A stretch of 64,000 nt of DNA, from positions 252,271 to 316,270 of the forward strand of contig CAWVVV010000003.1 in the NCBI GenBank assembly GCA_963933835.1, written 5' to 3'. Every line of letters starts with the position of its first letter. The stretch's first letter is position 1. Below, piece by piece: positions 23,244 through 27,527 of this stretch. The translations under genes and the position numbers were made by a program. Under the pieces are notes generated by a model. That model made no database searches. It was given only the letters and a program-made list of their open reading frames with translations, and had not been told where the DNA came from. This DNA comes from an uncultured Puniceicoccaceae bacterium (GTDB lineage: Bacteria > Verrucomicrobiota > Verrucomicrobiia > Opitutales > Oceanipulchritudinaceae).

Positions 23244-23434
23244 CCTCAAACCATAAAATGCTGATTATTAGCATCTTATGGATCACATAGTGGCGAGTTA
23301 AAAACCCGCCACCTTTTTCTTGCAGGGGCAATTTTTCATTTTGTATTTAACTCTAAATCAAGGACTTAAAGCCTTATTTACACTTAAGGATATCTGATTC
23401 AACTCCAAGGGACTAAATCTTGGGCTTAATTATG

Positions 23435-23454
23435 GTGTCCCTATATATGTCCCA
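23435..23454 (+). repeat. Putative integrase arm-type site pair (left)
   Basis: GTGTCCCTATATATGTCCCA, 18/20 identical to 27904-27923; two TGTCCC units 12 bp apart. Confidence 0.65.
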
Positions 23455-23823
23455 TTTCGACAACGATTTGAAGGCATTACAATTCGTGCTTTCTGACTAG
23501 GAAACTAGGTAATTAAGTCAGATGATGAATTTGACTTAACGCGTTCAGAGGATTTATCCGGTAATCCACTACTAATTGATTACCAGAACTGCTTCGCTGC
23601 GCGGTATTCATGTTTTGGCGATGGACCGGGAGTTTATCGGAAAAGATTGGTTTCGGTGGCTCAATCGTAAGGCCATCGGCTACATTGCCCAAATCAAAAG
23701 CAATACGATCATCAGTAATCAACACGCAAGATAACAAAAAGTATAAAGTGTCTCATCGAATCGGCATGACACCTTTTACAGCACTGCATAGCTTAAATGC
23801 TTGACCGAGCACCTCCTCCTTAT

Positions 23824-23838
23824 TGAAAGTGACTTTCA
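23824..23838. promoter_or_regulatory. Fur-family (likely Zur) 7-1-7 operator
   Basis: Perfect palindrome TGAAAGT-G-ACTTTCA, 17 bp downstream of TTGACC (23801-23806), overlapping the ATG at 23838. Confidence 0.75.
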
Positions 23839-24221
23839 TGAAGAGAGGAAGAAAGACGAAGTATACAAGAACCGCATCACCTGCGCGGCGCTGGGCTTCG
23901 GCTTTAATGGTAGTGCTCTTGCTAACCTTGTCTTTCGCAAGCGTCAGCCCGATCTTACATGATTGGCTTAATGCGGGCAACTCCTGCGAATCGGTTTGCA
24001 GCAGCGAATCGCATGGTTCTACGGAGGACCAAACCGTCCACGTCTGCGCGGTAGAAATTTTTGGAATGGGCGCGGACTGTCCATCTTCGATAGAGATTCC
24101 ATCCGCAGCTTTGATCGAGGTCGCACAACTCTCGTCTTATTATAATTCAACTTGGGATGAGAAGAGTGTCCGCTCCCGCTGTGCACGTGCCCCACCGATT
24201 GAAAGTGTCGTTACCGCTTAG
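23838..24221 (+). CDS. DUF2946/CruR-like membrane leader protein with a C-terminal RAPP motif
   Basis: Basic N-terminus, TM segment, His/Cys cluster (LHDW, CESVC, HVCAV), RAPP at 24186-24197; 79 bp upstream of a TonB-dependent receptor. Confidence 0.78.
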   Translation: MKRGRKTKYTRTASPARRWASALMVVLLLTLSFASVSPILHDWLNAGNSCESVCSSESHGSTEDQTVHVCAVEIFGMGADCPSSIEIPSAALIEVAQLSSYYNSTWDEKSVRSRCARAPPIESVVTA

Positions 24222-24300
24222 TCTCTAAGCACTACACTCACCGTACCTATGCTGTGAGTGTTACTTCAACAACAACTTTCAACAACAACTTTCAATAACT

Positions 24301-26391
24301 ATGCACAGCTTTATAAAAAAAAGCGGCCTCTTTGCCTGCGCCGCTCTTCTCACGAATATCACCCAAGCAGATCAACTTGATTCCGATTATGTTTACGTAC
24401 TAGACGAATACATTATATCAGCGGGTCCCTTACCACGTCAGATTGAGGACTATTCCAATCCTTTCACCGCTCTCGATACTGATGCGATTCGCCAAGAGTC
24501 CGGCGGCACACTCGGCGAATTACTAGATGGGCAACCAGGTGTTACTTCAACCAGCTTTGGAGCTGGAGCCAGTCGCCCCATTATCCGTGGTTTCGATGCC
24601 GCTCGTGTCCGAATTCTGGAGTCGGGCCTAGGTTCACTCGATGTTTCTGAGACCAGCCCCGATCATGCAGTTTCCGTTGAGCCACTGCTCACGAAACGTA
24701 TTGAGATACTGCGTGGTCCTTCCACATTGCTTTACGGCAGCTCGGCCATCGGCGGCGTGGTCAATGTAGTTGGCCGCGAAATCCCACGTGTTCCGGTCGA
24801 TCCGAAAGGCTACGAAGGTGCCTTCGAGACACGCTATGACACCGTCTCCGAAGGAGAGACTTACCTCGGCTATGGCACAGTTGGCGGTGAGAATTGGGCC
24901 TTTGGAGTATCGGGACTAACTCGGAAAACTGAAAATTATGAAATCCCTGGAGAAGCCGAAGCTTTCCACGAAGAAGAAGCACATGAGGAAGACGACCACG
25001 AGGAGGAAGCATCCGGCGACACACTGGAGAACAGTTTCGTCGAAAATGATTTTATCTCAGTGGGCGGCACTTGGTTCTTCGGAGAACAAAGCTACCTCGG
25101 CGCATCTTTTTCATCCTATGACGCTTTTTACGGAGTGCCGGGACATGGGCACCACGAGGAGGAAGCGCATGATGACCATGAAGAGGAAGATCATCACGAA
25201 GAAGAAGAAGGCGTCGCTATCGATCTGGAACGAAAGCGTTTCGATCTGGAATTGGCGCTTTTTGAGCCGATCGATTGGATCGAAGCTGTTCGCATCCGTT
25301 TCGGCTACACCGACTACGAGCACCTTGAGAACGAAGGTGACGAGATGGGTACTGTTTTCCAACGTGACGGCTGGGAGTTTCGAGCCGAAGCCGCACACCA
25401 TGAATGGACATTTATCGACGAAGGAATCTTCGGGATCGATATTTCGGACACTCGTTTTGAAGCAATCGGGGAAGAGGGCGCTGCCTTCGGCCCACCAACT
25501 GAAACGCGCAATCAGGCATTTTTCATTAGTGAGCAGATTCACCAAGATAAAATGCACTACGAGTTCGGCGGCCGGCTGGAAGCCCAACAAATCGACGCAG
25601 AGGGCGGCTTATCTGATTATAGTGGACTCGCCCTTAGCTTGGCCGCTGGACTCATCTATGAAATCGATGAAAATAACTCTCTTGCGCTCTCCTTACAACG
25701 CTCGCAACGGAACCCAACCTCTTCTGAACTCTATGCCAACGGTGCCCACTTGGCTACCAGCCAGTTCGAAATTGGCGATGCAGACCTTGAGCTTGAAACT
25801 GCATATGGAGTCGATCTAAGCTATCGACACAGTAATTCAGTTTGGAATACCCGCCTCTCAGTCTTCTATACTTACTTCGAAGATTATATCTTCGCAGAGG
25901 CGACCGGTGCTGAAGAAGACGAACTAGCGGTCTTTGCATTTACTGCTTTAGATGCATCTTTCTATGGGCTCGAAGCTGAACTGGAATACCTGCTGATCGA
26001 CAGCAGTGATATCCAATTCAAAATTGGATTACTGGGCGATTTCGTGAAAACTGAAAACCACTCAGCGAAAGATGCACTTCCCCGAACACCTCCACTTCGT
26101 ATCGGAGGAAAGGTCCGTCTGATTCACGGCAACTGGGACACTGGAGTAATCTTACGTCACGCTTTTGAGCAGAACGACACCGCACCGCTTGAAACAGAAA
26201 CTGATGGATACACCGAACTCCAAGCGGACCTGTCATATACCTTCGACTTAAGCAATGACATGGATTTCACGCTATTTGTTCGTGCAGACAATCTATTAGA
26301 CGAAGAGATCCGCCCGCACACATCCTTCCTCAAAGATGATGTGCTGCTCTCTGGCCGTAATTTCACGCTAGGCGCTCGGTTGGAGTTCTAA
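24301..26391 (+). CDS. His/Glu-rich TonB-dependent receptor (ZnuD-like)
   Basis: Signal peptide, plug SRPIIRG..SPDHAV..EILRGPSTLLYGSSAIGGVVN, two HEEE tracts, DNLLDE..GRNF, terminal F. Confidence 0.93.
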   Translation: MHSFIKKSGLFACAALLTNITQADQLDSDYVYVLDEYIISAGPLPRQIEDYSNPFTALDTDAIRQESGGTLGELLDGQPGVTSTSFGAGASRPIIRGFDAARVRILESGLGSLDVSETSPDHAVSVEPLLTKRIEILRGPSTLLYGSSAIGGVVNVVGREIPRVPVDPKGYEGAFETRYDTVSEGETYLGYGTVGGENWAFGVSGLTRKTENYEIPGEAEAFHEEEAHEEDDHEEEASGDTLENSFVENDFISVGGTWFFGEQSYLGASFSSYDAFYGVPGHGHHEEEAHDDHEEEDHHEEEEGVAIDLERKRFDLELALFEPIDWIEAVRIRFGYTDYEHLENEGDEMGTVFQRDGWEFRAEAAHHEWTFIDEGIFGIDISDTRFEAIGEEGAAFGPPTETRNQAFFISEQIHQDKMHYEFGGRLEAQQIDAEGGLSDYSGLALSLAAGLIYEIDENNSLALSLQRSQRNPTSSELYANGAHLATSQFEIGDADLELETAYGVDLSYRHSNSVWNTRLSVFYTYFEDYIFAEATGAEEDELAVFAFTALDASFYGLEAELEYLLIDSSDIQFKIGLLGDFVKTENHSAKDALPRTPPLRIGGKVRLIHGNWDTGVILRHAFEQNDTAPLETETDGYTELQADLSYTFDLSNDMDFTLFVRADNLLDEEIRPHTSFLKDDVLLSGRNFTLGARLEF

Positions 26392-26481: not shown

Positions 26482-26919
26482 ATGCCCCTCAAAAAGACAG
26501 AGCTTTTAGAAGTTATCATAGATCGCCTAAAGTTAAGCGGCGGCCGCATGACGAAAAAGCGCGAGCGCATCCTCGGTGCTTTACTGACCTTTGATCACCC
26601 CGCTACTGCTGAAGAAATCCGCGAACGGGCAGAGTTACCCCCCTCGGACTTGGTGACAGTCTATCGAAATCTCGAAACCTTTGAATCGATCAACTCGCTC
26701 CAACGGATTCCGCTCGAAAACGGCACTCAGATTTTTGAGCTGACTGCACCTGGAGAGCACTACCACCATCTCATTTGCCGCGAGTGCCACAAAGCCGAAC
26801 GCTTGGACGTCTGCGTAGGCAAAGAATTGATCCACAATGCAAAAGCACGCGGCTACTCACAAATTTCCCATATCATGGAAGTCTACGGCGTCTGCGAAAG
26901 CTGCGAAAGCCCAGCCTAA
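26482..26919 (+). CDS. Fur-family regulator (probably Zur)
   Basis: RMTKKRERIL, TVYRNL, HYHHLICREC, YGVCESC. Confidence 0.93.
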   Translation: MPLKKTELLEVIIDRLKLSGGRMTKKRERILGALLTFDHPATAEEIRERAELPPSDLVTVYRNLETFESINSLQRIPLENGTQIFELTAPGEHYHHLICRECHKAERLDVCVGKELIHNAKARGYSQISHIMEVYGVCESCESPA

Positions 26920-27029: not shown

Positions 27030-27527
27030 TTAGTGTGAACATTGGCTCTTCCGGCAGAGGCGAAAGTTCCTTACATGAGCTCCCGCGAGGAAGAGGCCAC
27101 CGATAGTATTAATCCAGGCTCCCGCATTTAACGGTAGAGGCTCTTCAGAGAGATCACGCGAACAGCTTGAGCAGCTGTGCACACAAGTCGCTTCAACGCC
27201 ATCATGTGCTGCCGCATATTGACGCTCATGTATGAGCGCAAAAATCAGAAGACTCAAGCCGACAGCACTCAACGCTGCGACCCACTTATCTTTATGCTTA
27301 CGGCAGCCCATAAACATGGCGAAACCCGTCGTTGGCAGCACCAGTAGCAACATCCAAAGGTGGAAATCCTCATGCACGAAAAAGCTCGTGGCTACAATCG
27401 GGAGCAGCACCAACAAAACCGGCGTTAATAAACAATGTACCGCGCAGACTGTTGCCATCCCAATTGCAAGATGATCGAGCCAGCCATGTGTACGACAACT
27501 ATTTTGAGCGCTATTCATAGTATTCAC
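27030..27527 (-). CDS. MerC-domain membrane protein with a His/Cys-rich loop
   Basis: DHLAIG..VCAVHCL..P, RKHK, AHVRN..LC; insert HDG..CVHSCSSC. Confidence 0.88.
   Translation of the reverse strand: MNTMNSAQNSCRTHGWLDHLAIGMATVCAVHCLLTPVLLVLLPIVATSFFVHEDFHLWMLLLVLPTTGFAMFMGCRKHKDKWVAALSAVGLSLLIFALIHERQYAAAHDGVEATCVHSCSSCSRDLSEEPLPLNAGAWINTIGGLFLAGAHVRNFRLCRKSQCSH

Follow-up and report, generated by a model that had tools for sequence, protein, structure and literature searches.

To our knowledge, only two arrest peptides that sense a metal are known, CruR and CutF, and in both cases the metal is copper. CruR of Bordetella pertussis (Bp2923) carries a CXXC motif at residues 90-93 and a RAPP motif at residues 139-142, whose spacing is conserved to within 1-2 residues, with the first and second Cys placed 49 and 46 residues before the Arg and 45 residues intervening between CXXC and RAPP; copper releases its arrest, which allows Rho termination (PMC9426467). 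In the case of CutF, stalling melts a stem-loop that sequesters the cutO ribosome-binding site (bioRxiv 10.1101/2025.02.05.636593), and His-only CutF-like proteins encoded next to HupE/UreJ genes have been proposed as nickel/cobalt sensors (bioRxiv 10.1101/2022.11.11.516240). RAPP and RGPP motifs arrest the ribosomes of several phyla, CruR itself arrests in vitro with its Pro codons in the P and A sites, and small open reading frames (ORFs) with these motifs were found in silico upstream of TonB-dependent receptors across Gram-negative phyla (PMC12992588). Here we analysed a 64,000-nucleotide (nt) stretch of DNA, hereafter the window, from an uncultured Puniceicoccaceae bacterium of the Verrucomicrobiota (assembly GCA_963933835.1, contig CAWVVV010000003.1, positions 252,271 to 316,270, forward strand), in which a small leader ORF ending in RAPP precedes the gene for a ZnuD-like TonB-dependent receptor. 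An initial annotation, made from the sequence alone, had taken this leader for a candidate zinc-sensing translational switch. We consider it probable that the leader regulates by arrest, in the manner of the CruR/CutF (DUF2946) peptides, and so switches translation of the receptor, and that its product is not mainly a stable protein. The main new result, which goes beyond what the initial annotation had read, is the output mechanism that the RNA suggests: a predicted helix joins the end of the leader to the start of the receptor gene, occludes that start, and overlaps the footprint of the stalled ribosome.

The leader peptide and its family

The leader comprises the following features (coordinates are those of the window):

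23838..24221, + strand: leader ORF, 127 amino acids (aa), ATG at 23838 and stop codon TAG at 24219-24221; putative divergent DUF2946/CruR-like arrest peptide
23880..23945, + strand: N-terminal export signal or membrane helix, residues 15-36, predicted by AlphaFold2, with a Lys/Arg-rich segment before it
23958..23960, + strand: codon of His41, invariant in the family
23958..24047, + strand: putative metal-binding loop, His41-Cys70, including C49ESVC53 and H68xC70
24045..24047, + strand: codon of Cys70, invariant, at the position that the first CXXC Cys has in DUF2946
24186..24197, + strand: RAPP motif, residues 117-120, followed by IESVVTA and the stop codon (seven codons)

The N-terminus, MKRGRKTKYTRTASPARRW, has 7 Lys/Arg, and from about residue 20 to residue 36 the chain is hydrophobic. 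AlphaFold2 models residues 15-36 as a helix (predicted local distance difference test, pLDDT, about 90) and the leader otherwise mostly as coil (predicted template modelling score, pTM, 0.39); because such a model gives no distances, we draw no conclusion from it as to a clustering of His and Cys. From the positive-inside rule, the peptide would adopt an N-in/C-out topology. The His/Cys set consists of LHDW (His41), C49ESVC53 and H68VC70A, the loop from His41 to Cys70 containing 3 His, 3 Cys and 5 Asp/Glu, and Cys70 lies 47 residues from Arg117. If the stall occurs where the CruR toeprint reported in PMC12992588 places it, the P site would hold Pro119 (24192-24194) and the A site Pro120 (24195-24197). 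The basic N-terminus, the single hydrophobic helix, the His/Cys residues, the RAPP seven codons before the stop and the 79 nt that separate the leader stop from the receptor ATG (24301) had all been described in the initial annotation, and our analysis confirmed them.

A word-indexed search returned a single true relative of the leader, at 41% identity. Six-frame genome searches recovered a homologue in 5/41 relatives and, across the phylum, in 37/401 genomes, nearly all of the window's order (Opitutales), with one present in 20/26 genomes of family f18 and 14/35 of family f19. A profile built from 32 homologues was run against 1.84 billion protein representatives; with E<=1e-3 as the limit it matched 1213 clusters (50% identity), and with E<=1e-10 it matched 457. 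The family counts that follow refer to 149 sequences, the window protein and 148 of the top representatives, as aligned, and counts out of 145 refer to those of the top 149 representatives that have x[A/G]PP.

His41, Cys70 and Pro119 are invariant (149/149), and His45 (146/149), Pro38 (145/149), Gly78 (143/149) and Pro120 (148/149) are nearly so. Position 117 is Arg in 116/149 members, His in 12, Gln in 10, Cys in 9 and another residue in 2; position 118 is Ala in 82/149 and Gly in 65/149, and hence Ala or Gly in 147/149. The x[A/G]PP motif lies no more than 12 residues from the C-terminus in 145 of the top 149 representatives and 2-7 residues from the end in 142/145, the conserved Cys precedes it by 46-50 residues in 145/145, and all 149 sequences have a hydrophobic segment (median Kyte-Doolittle value 2.39). 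As homologues sharing the motif, the His, the Cys and the spacing are only 17-47% identical, these features of the leader are not a product of chance. The initial annotation had named loss of the motif in homologues as evidence that would overturn it; what we found is that both the RAPP-like motif and the His/Cys positions are kept. The loop from His41 to Cys70 varies between 16 and 53 residues in length (family medians of 5 His, 2 Cys and 6 Asp/Glu), and the C49xxxC53 of the window falls in this variable part, at a position that is not conserved. Between Gly78 and the motif, no column reaches 90% conservation among the 32 sequences, let alone full conservation. Such a stretch, which keeps its length and not its sequence, fits a spacer of fixed length, and a sensor joined to an arrest core by a free-sequence spacer of fixed length is the pattern that Roy et al. 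describe for CruR (PMC9426467).

At residue 45 (23970-23972), where 146/149 members have His, the window leader has Asn. In L060, a close relative, the corresponding residue is Ala (LHDWLAAEG), and, judging from the two sequences, the sub-lineage formed by the window and L060 seems to do without one ligand. A second membrane span after Cys70 was considered and rejected, as the Kyte-Doolittle value there reaches 1.6 or more in only 33/149 members and is 0.61 in the window. Separately, 11/149 members also match Pfam DUF6153, which groups small proteins of unknown function (best E 4.7e-4); DUF6153 and the leader family may belong to the same superfamily.

A predicted helix joins the leader end to the receptor start

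The RNA between positions 24170 and 24340 folds with an energy of -45.8 kcal/mol (z = -4.74), in a structure made of the following parts:

24178..24185, + strand: helix A 5' arm, GCUGUGCA, just upstream of the RAPP codons; pairs with 24302-24309
24302..24309, + strand: helix A 3' arm, UGCACAGC, covering the UG of the receptor AUG and codons 2-3
24198..24212, + strand: helix B 5' arm, the leader tail codons right after Pro-Pro; pairs with 24281-24296
24281..24296, + strand: helix B 3' arm, at -20 to -5 before the receptor AUG
24216-24230 (holding the leader stop codon) and 24234-24261, + strand: two local hairpins inside the long-range helix, as folded

The two leader arms flank the RAPP codons and together match the footprint expected of a ribosome with Pro119 in its P site. 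GC-rich apical hairpins of a comparable kind occur in related intergenic regions. Most of the receptor 5' leader (24266-24296) is a direct repeat, CAA-rich and free of G, in which UUCAACAACAACUU occurs twice, and this repeat supplies the 3' arm of the helix.

Among 33 loci, whose intergenic regions range from 49 to 217 nt, 23 have the 33-nt segment that pairs best with the receptor start region at a position between -12 and +6 nt relative to the Arg codon. When duplexes between leader tails and receptor starts were computed, cognate pairs averaged -14.4 kcal/mol versus -7.7 kcal/mol for non-cognate pairs, from which near-identical arms had been excluded, and 0/5000 permutations were as good, a figure that is not a formal probability because the loci are related. 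The cognate duplex beat every non-cognate one in 22/38 loci and ranked in the best tenth in 30/38. In the 34/39 loci with a duplex of -11 kcal/mol or below, the helix starts at +11 from the first base of the Arg codon (interquartile range 11-12), which falls on the final base of the second Pro codon; this offset holds for leader tails of 2, 3, 4, 5, 6 and 7 codons. Relative to the stop codon, the start of the helix ranges from -2 to -22. Being fixed to the Pro codons and variable from the stop, the structure is thus registered on the stall site and not on termination.

Folding each region on its own, from the second Pro codon to AUG+5, yielded at least 8 long-range pairs in 33/39 loci, with a median z of -3.41 and z <= -2 in 31/39. 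For seven sequences of equal architecture, RNAalifold recovered the first six pairs, 4/6 of them with compensatory changes. A Shine-Dalgarno sequence (GGAG, GAGG, AGGA or GGGG at -20 to -4) was found in 0/39 receptor start regions, that of the window included, so that the accessibility of the start stretch should decide initiation.

Relation to DUF2946

The window leader matches zero Pfam families at E<=1, and DUF2946 (PF11162, gathering score 23.7 bits) is unmatched even at E<=10. Weak matches to PF11162 come from its relatives, 11/32 of which match at E<=10 (best 3e-4) and 56/149 at E<=1 (best 6.4e-8). As for the CXXC hallmark, a Cys at -3 of the invariant Cys is present in 0/145 sequences and a His at -2 (HxC) in 97/145. 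Aligned by hhalign to a DUF2946 clade from acidobacteria, the family gave a weak result (probability 11%, E 0.0027), which serves here solely to show which motifs align: HxCAV pairs with HSCVAC, and R[A/G]PP with RGPP. Matches to PF11162 above the cut-off were obtained in 7/401 genomes of the phylum, at 8 canonical loci; the two families in which the present clade is common, with 61 genomes, contributed none of them. All of the canonical loci (8/8) have [H]xCxxC, plus the same P-x-x-H motif after the membrane helix. Among the DUF2946 hallmarks, then, the window clade lacks two (model score and CXXC) and has four (signal, RAPP, spacing and operon position), and we conclude from these alignments that it probably represents a divergent branch of the DUF2946 lineage, CruR/CutF-like, with the second Cys of CXXC lost, in marine Opitutales (Verrucomicrobiota). 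The initial annotation had likened the leader to CruR and DUF2946 in a different phylum and without a canonical CXXC; this reading is supported, through the matching relatives and the missing CXXC, even though the window protein itself has no Pfam match.

Leaders of the CXXC type also occur near related genes. One of them, a canonical DUF2946 leader of the same phylum (L091, G341:C47), ends in CGPP and lies upstream of a gene for an AztC/ZnuA-like substrate-binding protein (AztC E 3.2e-39, ZnuA E 5.4e-34, both below cut-off). Another, from a genome of the window's own family (L095, G006:C8), ends in RAPP and lies upstream of a ZnuD-like receptor, and in a Vicinamibacteraceae metagenome-assembled genome (MAG) a canonical CXXC leader that scores above the cut-off (28.1 bits) likewise precedes a ZnuD-like receptor. 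In a MAG of Kordiimonas sp. (L069), two leader-like ORFs in tandem (1627-1950 and 1973-2353) lie upstream of a single ZnuD-like receptor; both end in RAPP, one having HPC (49 residues from Cys to Arg) and the other CALC (48 residues), and together they may form a double sensor. The Atlas search yielded only unnamed look-alike clusters (Nitrospirota and Gemmatimonadota, one of them 12% DUF2946), which we take as leads and not as evidence.

The receptor, its neighbours and the upstream region

Downstream of the leader, the window contains:

24301..26391, + strand: ZnuD-like TonB-dependent receptor, 696 aa, with Pfam Plug and TonB beta-barrel domains and two His/Glu tracts
26482..26919, + strand: Fur-family regulator (PF01475, E 5.1e-18), third gene of the putative operon
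27030..27527, - strand: MerC-like membrane protein with Cys motifs (PF03203, E 5.6e-26), convergent with the Fur-family gene

The His/Glu tracts of the receptor are FHEEEAHEEDDHEEE and GHGHHEEEAHDDHEEEDHHEEEE. Against the NCBIfam ZnuD model NF038289 the protein scores 451.6 bits (E 5.6e-135), with residues 27-696 aligned to model positions 23-685 of 685; as this is below the curated cut-off of 950, we call it ZnuD-like and not ZnuD. The next best model gives 108.8 bits and the copper receptor model TIGR01778 gives 52.2 bits, and among solved structures ZnuD 4rdr comes first (E 3.8e-57), followed by one at 8.4e-10. Domains, model and structure together bear out the ZnuD-like receptor with two His/Glu tracts that the initial annotation had placed here. 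Relatives of the receptor are found in Thalassobacterium maritimum (66% identity) and in MAGs of the Coraliomargaritaceae and Puniceicoccaceae (Verrucomicrobiota, Opitutales). A same-strand ORF of at least 200 aa lies closely 3' of the leader in 33/33 loci. When 20 larger loci were examined with Pfam, Plug and barrel were recognised in 17 and the barrel alone in 1 more, while crude ORF calling yielded no receptor ORF in the remaining two (L051, L055). ZnuD is the best NCBIfam match of 19/20 receptors (E 1e-98 to 1e-146, all below cut-off), the exception being L052:9425-11854. Four MAGs of Coraliomargaritaceae/Opitutales/Opitutia (L063, L065, L066, L068) encode ZnuD-like receptors that are 51-54% identical to that of the window and leaderless, the leader having been lost or never gained within the order.

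The best solved relatives of the Fur-family protein are 3mwm/7vo0 and 2o03 (E 1e-14 to 3e-13), compared with 6e-12 for Fur, 1e-11 for Nur and 1.4e-11 for PerR. The structure 2o03 is named zinc uptake regulator FurB, and 3mwm we take to be the Zur of Streptomyces, so that the protein of the operon, one of 4 Fur paralogues in the genome, leans by a small margin in its sequence toward the solved Zur proteins. A Fur-family gene lies 3' of the receptor in 7/21 loci, and a MerC-like gene is kept convergent with the Fur-family gene in 6/21; the MerC-like protein could serve this uptake route at the inner membrane.

Two features lie upstream of the leader:

23576..23731: DDE transposase fragment, 52 aa (PF01609, E 0.0013), about 100 nt upstream of the leader
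23824..23838: perfect 7-1-7 palindrome TGAAAGT-G-ACTTTCA, overlapping the leader start codon and ending on the A of its ATG

The 7-1-7 form of the palindrome recalls Fur-family operators, and by its sequence it is a candidate operator, possibly for the Fur-family protein of the operon. A genome scan found one other perfect copy (G000 C7:3040-3054), and 13 sites with two mismatches or fewer versus 4 for the reversed control. Copies of TGAAAGT-N-ACTTTCA with one mismatch or fewer are found in five related loci: L016 and L060 have one at the corresponding position, and in L063, L066 and L068 one precedes the ZnuD-like receptor, which there is leaderless. The regulon of the palindrome gave no hint of the metal, the other perfect copy lying at a gene without a Pfam family and a one-mismatch copy being intragenic. 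At the position of the transposase fragment, relatives have a divergent rmuC, which lies upstream of the leader in most f18 loci, and a conserved TTGAC(A/G)-type promoter. A different palindrome, AATGTAGC-CTGT-GCTACATT, occurs exactly before znuA (G000 C2:349094-349113, L076/L080) and in tandem, one copy exact and one with 1 mismatch, before an outer-membrane barrel gene (PF13557; C7:36423-36464, L081), which makes AATGTAGC-N4-GCTACATT a candidate Zur box of this genome. A 9-mer common to the znuA region and the window was tried as a Zur box and rejected, being part of the transposase fragment and no more than chance would give. A second gene of the ZnuA family (G000 C2:296915-297665, L077/L078) gives its Pfam match in two overlapping pieces in different frames, which suggests a frameshift or an assembly error.

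Discussion

We propose that the nascent leader chain is targeted to the membrane and that the ribosome stalls on reaching Pro119-Pro120. The stalled ribosome would cover roughly 24180-24207 and keep the leader arms of the helix (24178-24212) single-stranded, and with both arms so held, the receptor start region would be free and the receptor would be made. Metal binding by the His41-HxC70 loop would fold or pull the chain and release the arrest, whereupon translation of the leader would terminate, the helix would re-form, and translation of the receptor would stop. The net effect would be negative feedback on an uptake receptor, with the sensing logic of CruR and the output of CutF/SecM. At the stall, the loop would be 49-79 residues away from the peptidyl-transferase centre, and hence just outside the tunnel. 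In 2015, Nilsson and co-workers reportedly found that a small domain which folds with zinc close to the exit of the tunnel can release the arrest of SecM, which makes the idea of a pulling force plausible. A Fur-family repressor bound at the palindrome on the leader start codon may add control of transcription.

Which metal is sensed is a question on which we lean to zinc, at close to even chances, with copper rather unlikely and other metals taking what is left. In favor of zinc are the ZnuD-like partner, the Zur-leaning regulator, a loop that is rich in imidazole and carboxylate and poor in thiol, and the position of the L091 leader at the head of an AztC/ZnuA-like gene; the DUF2946 gene CC2720 of Caulobacter, moreover, heads the Zur-activated zinc/cadmium efflux operon czrCBA-zntA (PMC4176598, Table 1). 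The same arrest switch might instead sense copper, the leader being a CruR orthologue minus its second Cys and the receptor importing copper or a copper chelate, and this alternative we hold to be unlikely. All characterised DUF2946 members respond to copper (PMC9426467; bioRxiv 10.1101/2025.02.05.636593), His and Cys bind copper too, and CXXC leaders precede ZnuD-like receptors in Vicinamibacteraceae, in Kordiimonas and in the window's own family, so that the type of receptor fails to separate the types of leader, both of which may read the same metal. A copper sensor fits less well with a receptor that scores 451.6 bits against ZnuD versus 52.2 against TIGR01778, with the absence of CXXC from all 145 sequences and a loop rich in His, Asp and Glu, with the AztC/ZnuA-like gene headed by a DUF2946 leader of this very phylum, and with the presence of a Fur-family gene in the operon, as we know of no copper-sensing member of the Fur family. 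In addition, no copper genes (such as CopC, PCuAC or multicopper oxidase) were recognised adjoining the leader-receptor pair in 21 loci, the sole PepSY_TM gene being in L045, beside a second receptor on the opposite strand. The zinc reading of the initial annotation has support from the receptor and, marginally, from the regulator, and loses some of it to the CXXC leaders that share this receptor type and to the copper responses of the DUF2946 members tested.

Other explanations concern the output or the nature of the product. Control by Rho-dependent attenuation as in the Bordetella CruR, instead of or beside unmasking, with the stalled ribosome blocking the loading of Rho, appears improbable to us, its attractions being the CruR precedent (PMC9426467), the CAA-rich repeats at 24266-24296 and an intergenic composition in which C exceeds G in 37/39 loci (mean C 0.32 and G 0.21; in the window 0.29 and 0.09), which would also fit a Rho loading site. 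Control by Rho would, however, have no need of a covarying helix that has its anchor at the Pro codons and blocks the start region, and many of the intergenic regions are only 49-62 nt long and mostly paired, which leaves little free RNA. It is still less probable that the leader is a stable small membrane or periplasmic metal-binding protein, be it a chaperone or a partner of the receptor, whose helix reflects ordinary coupling and whose Pro-Pro causes no regulated arrest. The conserved His, Cys and membrane helix would suit a metallochaperone as well, any ribosome translating the tail would open the helix, and the Arg is missing in 33/149 members and the leader itself at four loci; yet of the 40 residues before the motif length alone is conserved, the model is mostly coil, the helix starts at a fixed distance from the Pro codons and not from the stop codon, and Pro-Pro is found in 148/149 members. 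RAPP/RGPP is reported to be strongly avoided in bacterial proteomes unless for arrest (PMC12992588), and neither CruR nor CutF is detectable as a protein. A monitor of secretion or insertion, in which the pulling force of membrane insertion alone releases the arrest and reports on Sec/YidC capacity, would share with ApdA, ApdP and SecM the combination of an export signal with a C-terminal RAPP (PMC12992588). We find this hardly credible, since the downstream gene is a metal receptor, and never a Sec/YidC component, in every locus, and the invariant His/Cys and the His-rich loop would be left without a role.

Several observations weigh against the leader being a DUF2946-type arrest switch, or against zinc as its metal. 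The window protein has no Pfam match, its clade aligns only weakly with DUF2946, and its residue 45 is not the usual His. The Arg of the arrest motif, irreplaceable in SecM, ApdA and ApdP (PMC12992588), is present in the window and absent from 22% of the family, so that this feature of the RAPP class is not universal in the clade. Four related Opitutales loci have the receptor and no leader. Regarding the RNA, the duplex is weak in 5/39 loci (L003, L028, L030, L034, L035), the helix did not form when folded alone in 6/39 (L003, L028, L029, L033, L034, L035), and RNAalifold found zero consensus structure in a 14-sequence MAFFT alignment, as variable loops shift the arms out of register, for which reason we rely on duplex energies and single-sequence folds. 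The C-rich, G-poor intergenic regions, as said, also suit Rho. Upstream, the transposase fragment stands in the place of the rmuC and promoter of the relatives, possibly through a rearrangement of the locus. A scan of the + strand from 23300 to 24500 yielded no sigma-70-like promoter. For zinc in particular, the other perfect copy of the operator-like palindrome sits at a gene of unknown family, and the znuA palindrome was not found at the leader operon, only single half-sites being present, in 3/39 loci.

Taking all of this into account, we tentatively suggest that this is the first zinc-sensing nascent-chain switch, a reading that we rate at somewhat less than even: a site made of His41, His45 and HxC70 through which zinc would release the RAPP arrest, and a helix that would then hide the start of a ZnuD-like receptor gene, on top of a Zur-like repressor. 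Our literature searches turned up no account of an arrest peptide that responds to zinc, of a DUF2946 clade of the HxC type in Verrucomicrobiota or of such a helix, even if supplementary tables may list members of the clade. The initial annotation knew of no described zinc-type example, and within this scope we found none either; it is partly overtaken by the RAPP/RGPP ORFs before TonB receptors and the nickel/cobalt proposals for CutF-like proteins that are already in print.

The clade keeps the signal, the Cys about 47 residues before R[A/G]PP and the metal-transport gene, and swaps CXXC for His/HxC; it therefore lends itself, as a natural experiment, to asking whether other ligands tune the sensor to a different metal. 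The helix, with its 5' end fixed at the A-site codon, would be an output module that is unusually clean, and it occurs in organisms with receptor genes that have no Shine-Dalgarno sequence. If a zinc switch is indeed at work, the DUF2946 design would be a general, retunable metal sensor, with Cys-Cys for copper and His-Cys or His-rich sites for zinc, and such a switch would be widespread in marine Verrucomicrobiota. Seven sequencing runs contain half of the stretch or more, and they come mainly from marine metagenomes; the related genomes are mostly from uncultured marine-type Opitutales; with its 1213 clusters and its marine occurrence, the clade bears on the acquisition of trace metals in the ocean.

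When compared with known systems, the locus resembles CruR in that the leader is the first gene before a TonB-dependent transporter and encodes a poorly structured product that begins with an export signal and ends in a RAPP, with a Cys some 46-49 residues ahead of this motif, and in the logic to be expected, by which the metal would release the arrest and turn the uptake gene off. Unlike CruR, it belongs to the Verrucomicrobiota and to a clade with 0/145 CXXC, which has HxC and the invariant His41 instead; its receptor is ZnuD-like and not CrtA/BfrG, and it has a Fur-family gene and no PepSY_TM partner. The 162-nt region on which Rho acts in CruR is replaced by a short, structured intergenic region whose helix masks the start. 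With CutF of Rhodobacter capsulatus it shares an exported, DUF2946-like peptide whose stalling would let the ribosome open RNA that masks the downstream initiation site, and, in the window, a CxxxC (C49ESVC53). CutF, however, has a PPP motif and depends on EF-P, and there copper induces stalling and turns on a detoxifying oxidase; as the target here is an uptake receptor, the sign is probably reversed. The stem-loop of CutF is intergenic and masks a Shine-Dalgarno sequence, whereas here the 5' arm starts inside the A-site codon and the Shine-Dalgarno sequence is absent.

The leader also has the makings of the ApdA/ApdP/SecM class, namely a C-terminal R-[A/G]-P-P near the stop, an N-terminal localisation signal, variable sequence N-terminal to the motif and a downstream gene on the same strand. 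It differs from the RAPP/RGPP class in that 22% of its family replace the Arg, by His, Gln or Cys. In PMC12992588, the RAPP/RGPP ORFs are treated by annotation only, and HxC/His41, the fixed spacing, the ZnuD-type partner and the helix are not described there. The receptor itself is like ZnuD of Neisseria meningitidis (4rdr) and ZnuK/ZnuL of Caulobacter (PMC4176598) in its full-length alignment to the ZnuD model, its His-rich tracts and its Fur-family neighbour. It is set apart from the known ZnuD-type genes, which are described as controlled by Zur at the promoter (PMC4176598), by the leader peptide upstream and by a score of 451.6 versus 950 bits. Finally, in the systems where arrest controls unmasking (SecM-secA, MifM-yidC2 and CutF-cutO), the RNA structure that occludes the downstream start region overlaps the footprint of the stalled ribosome, an arrangement that our computations find matched at this locus.

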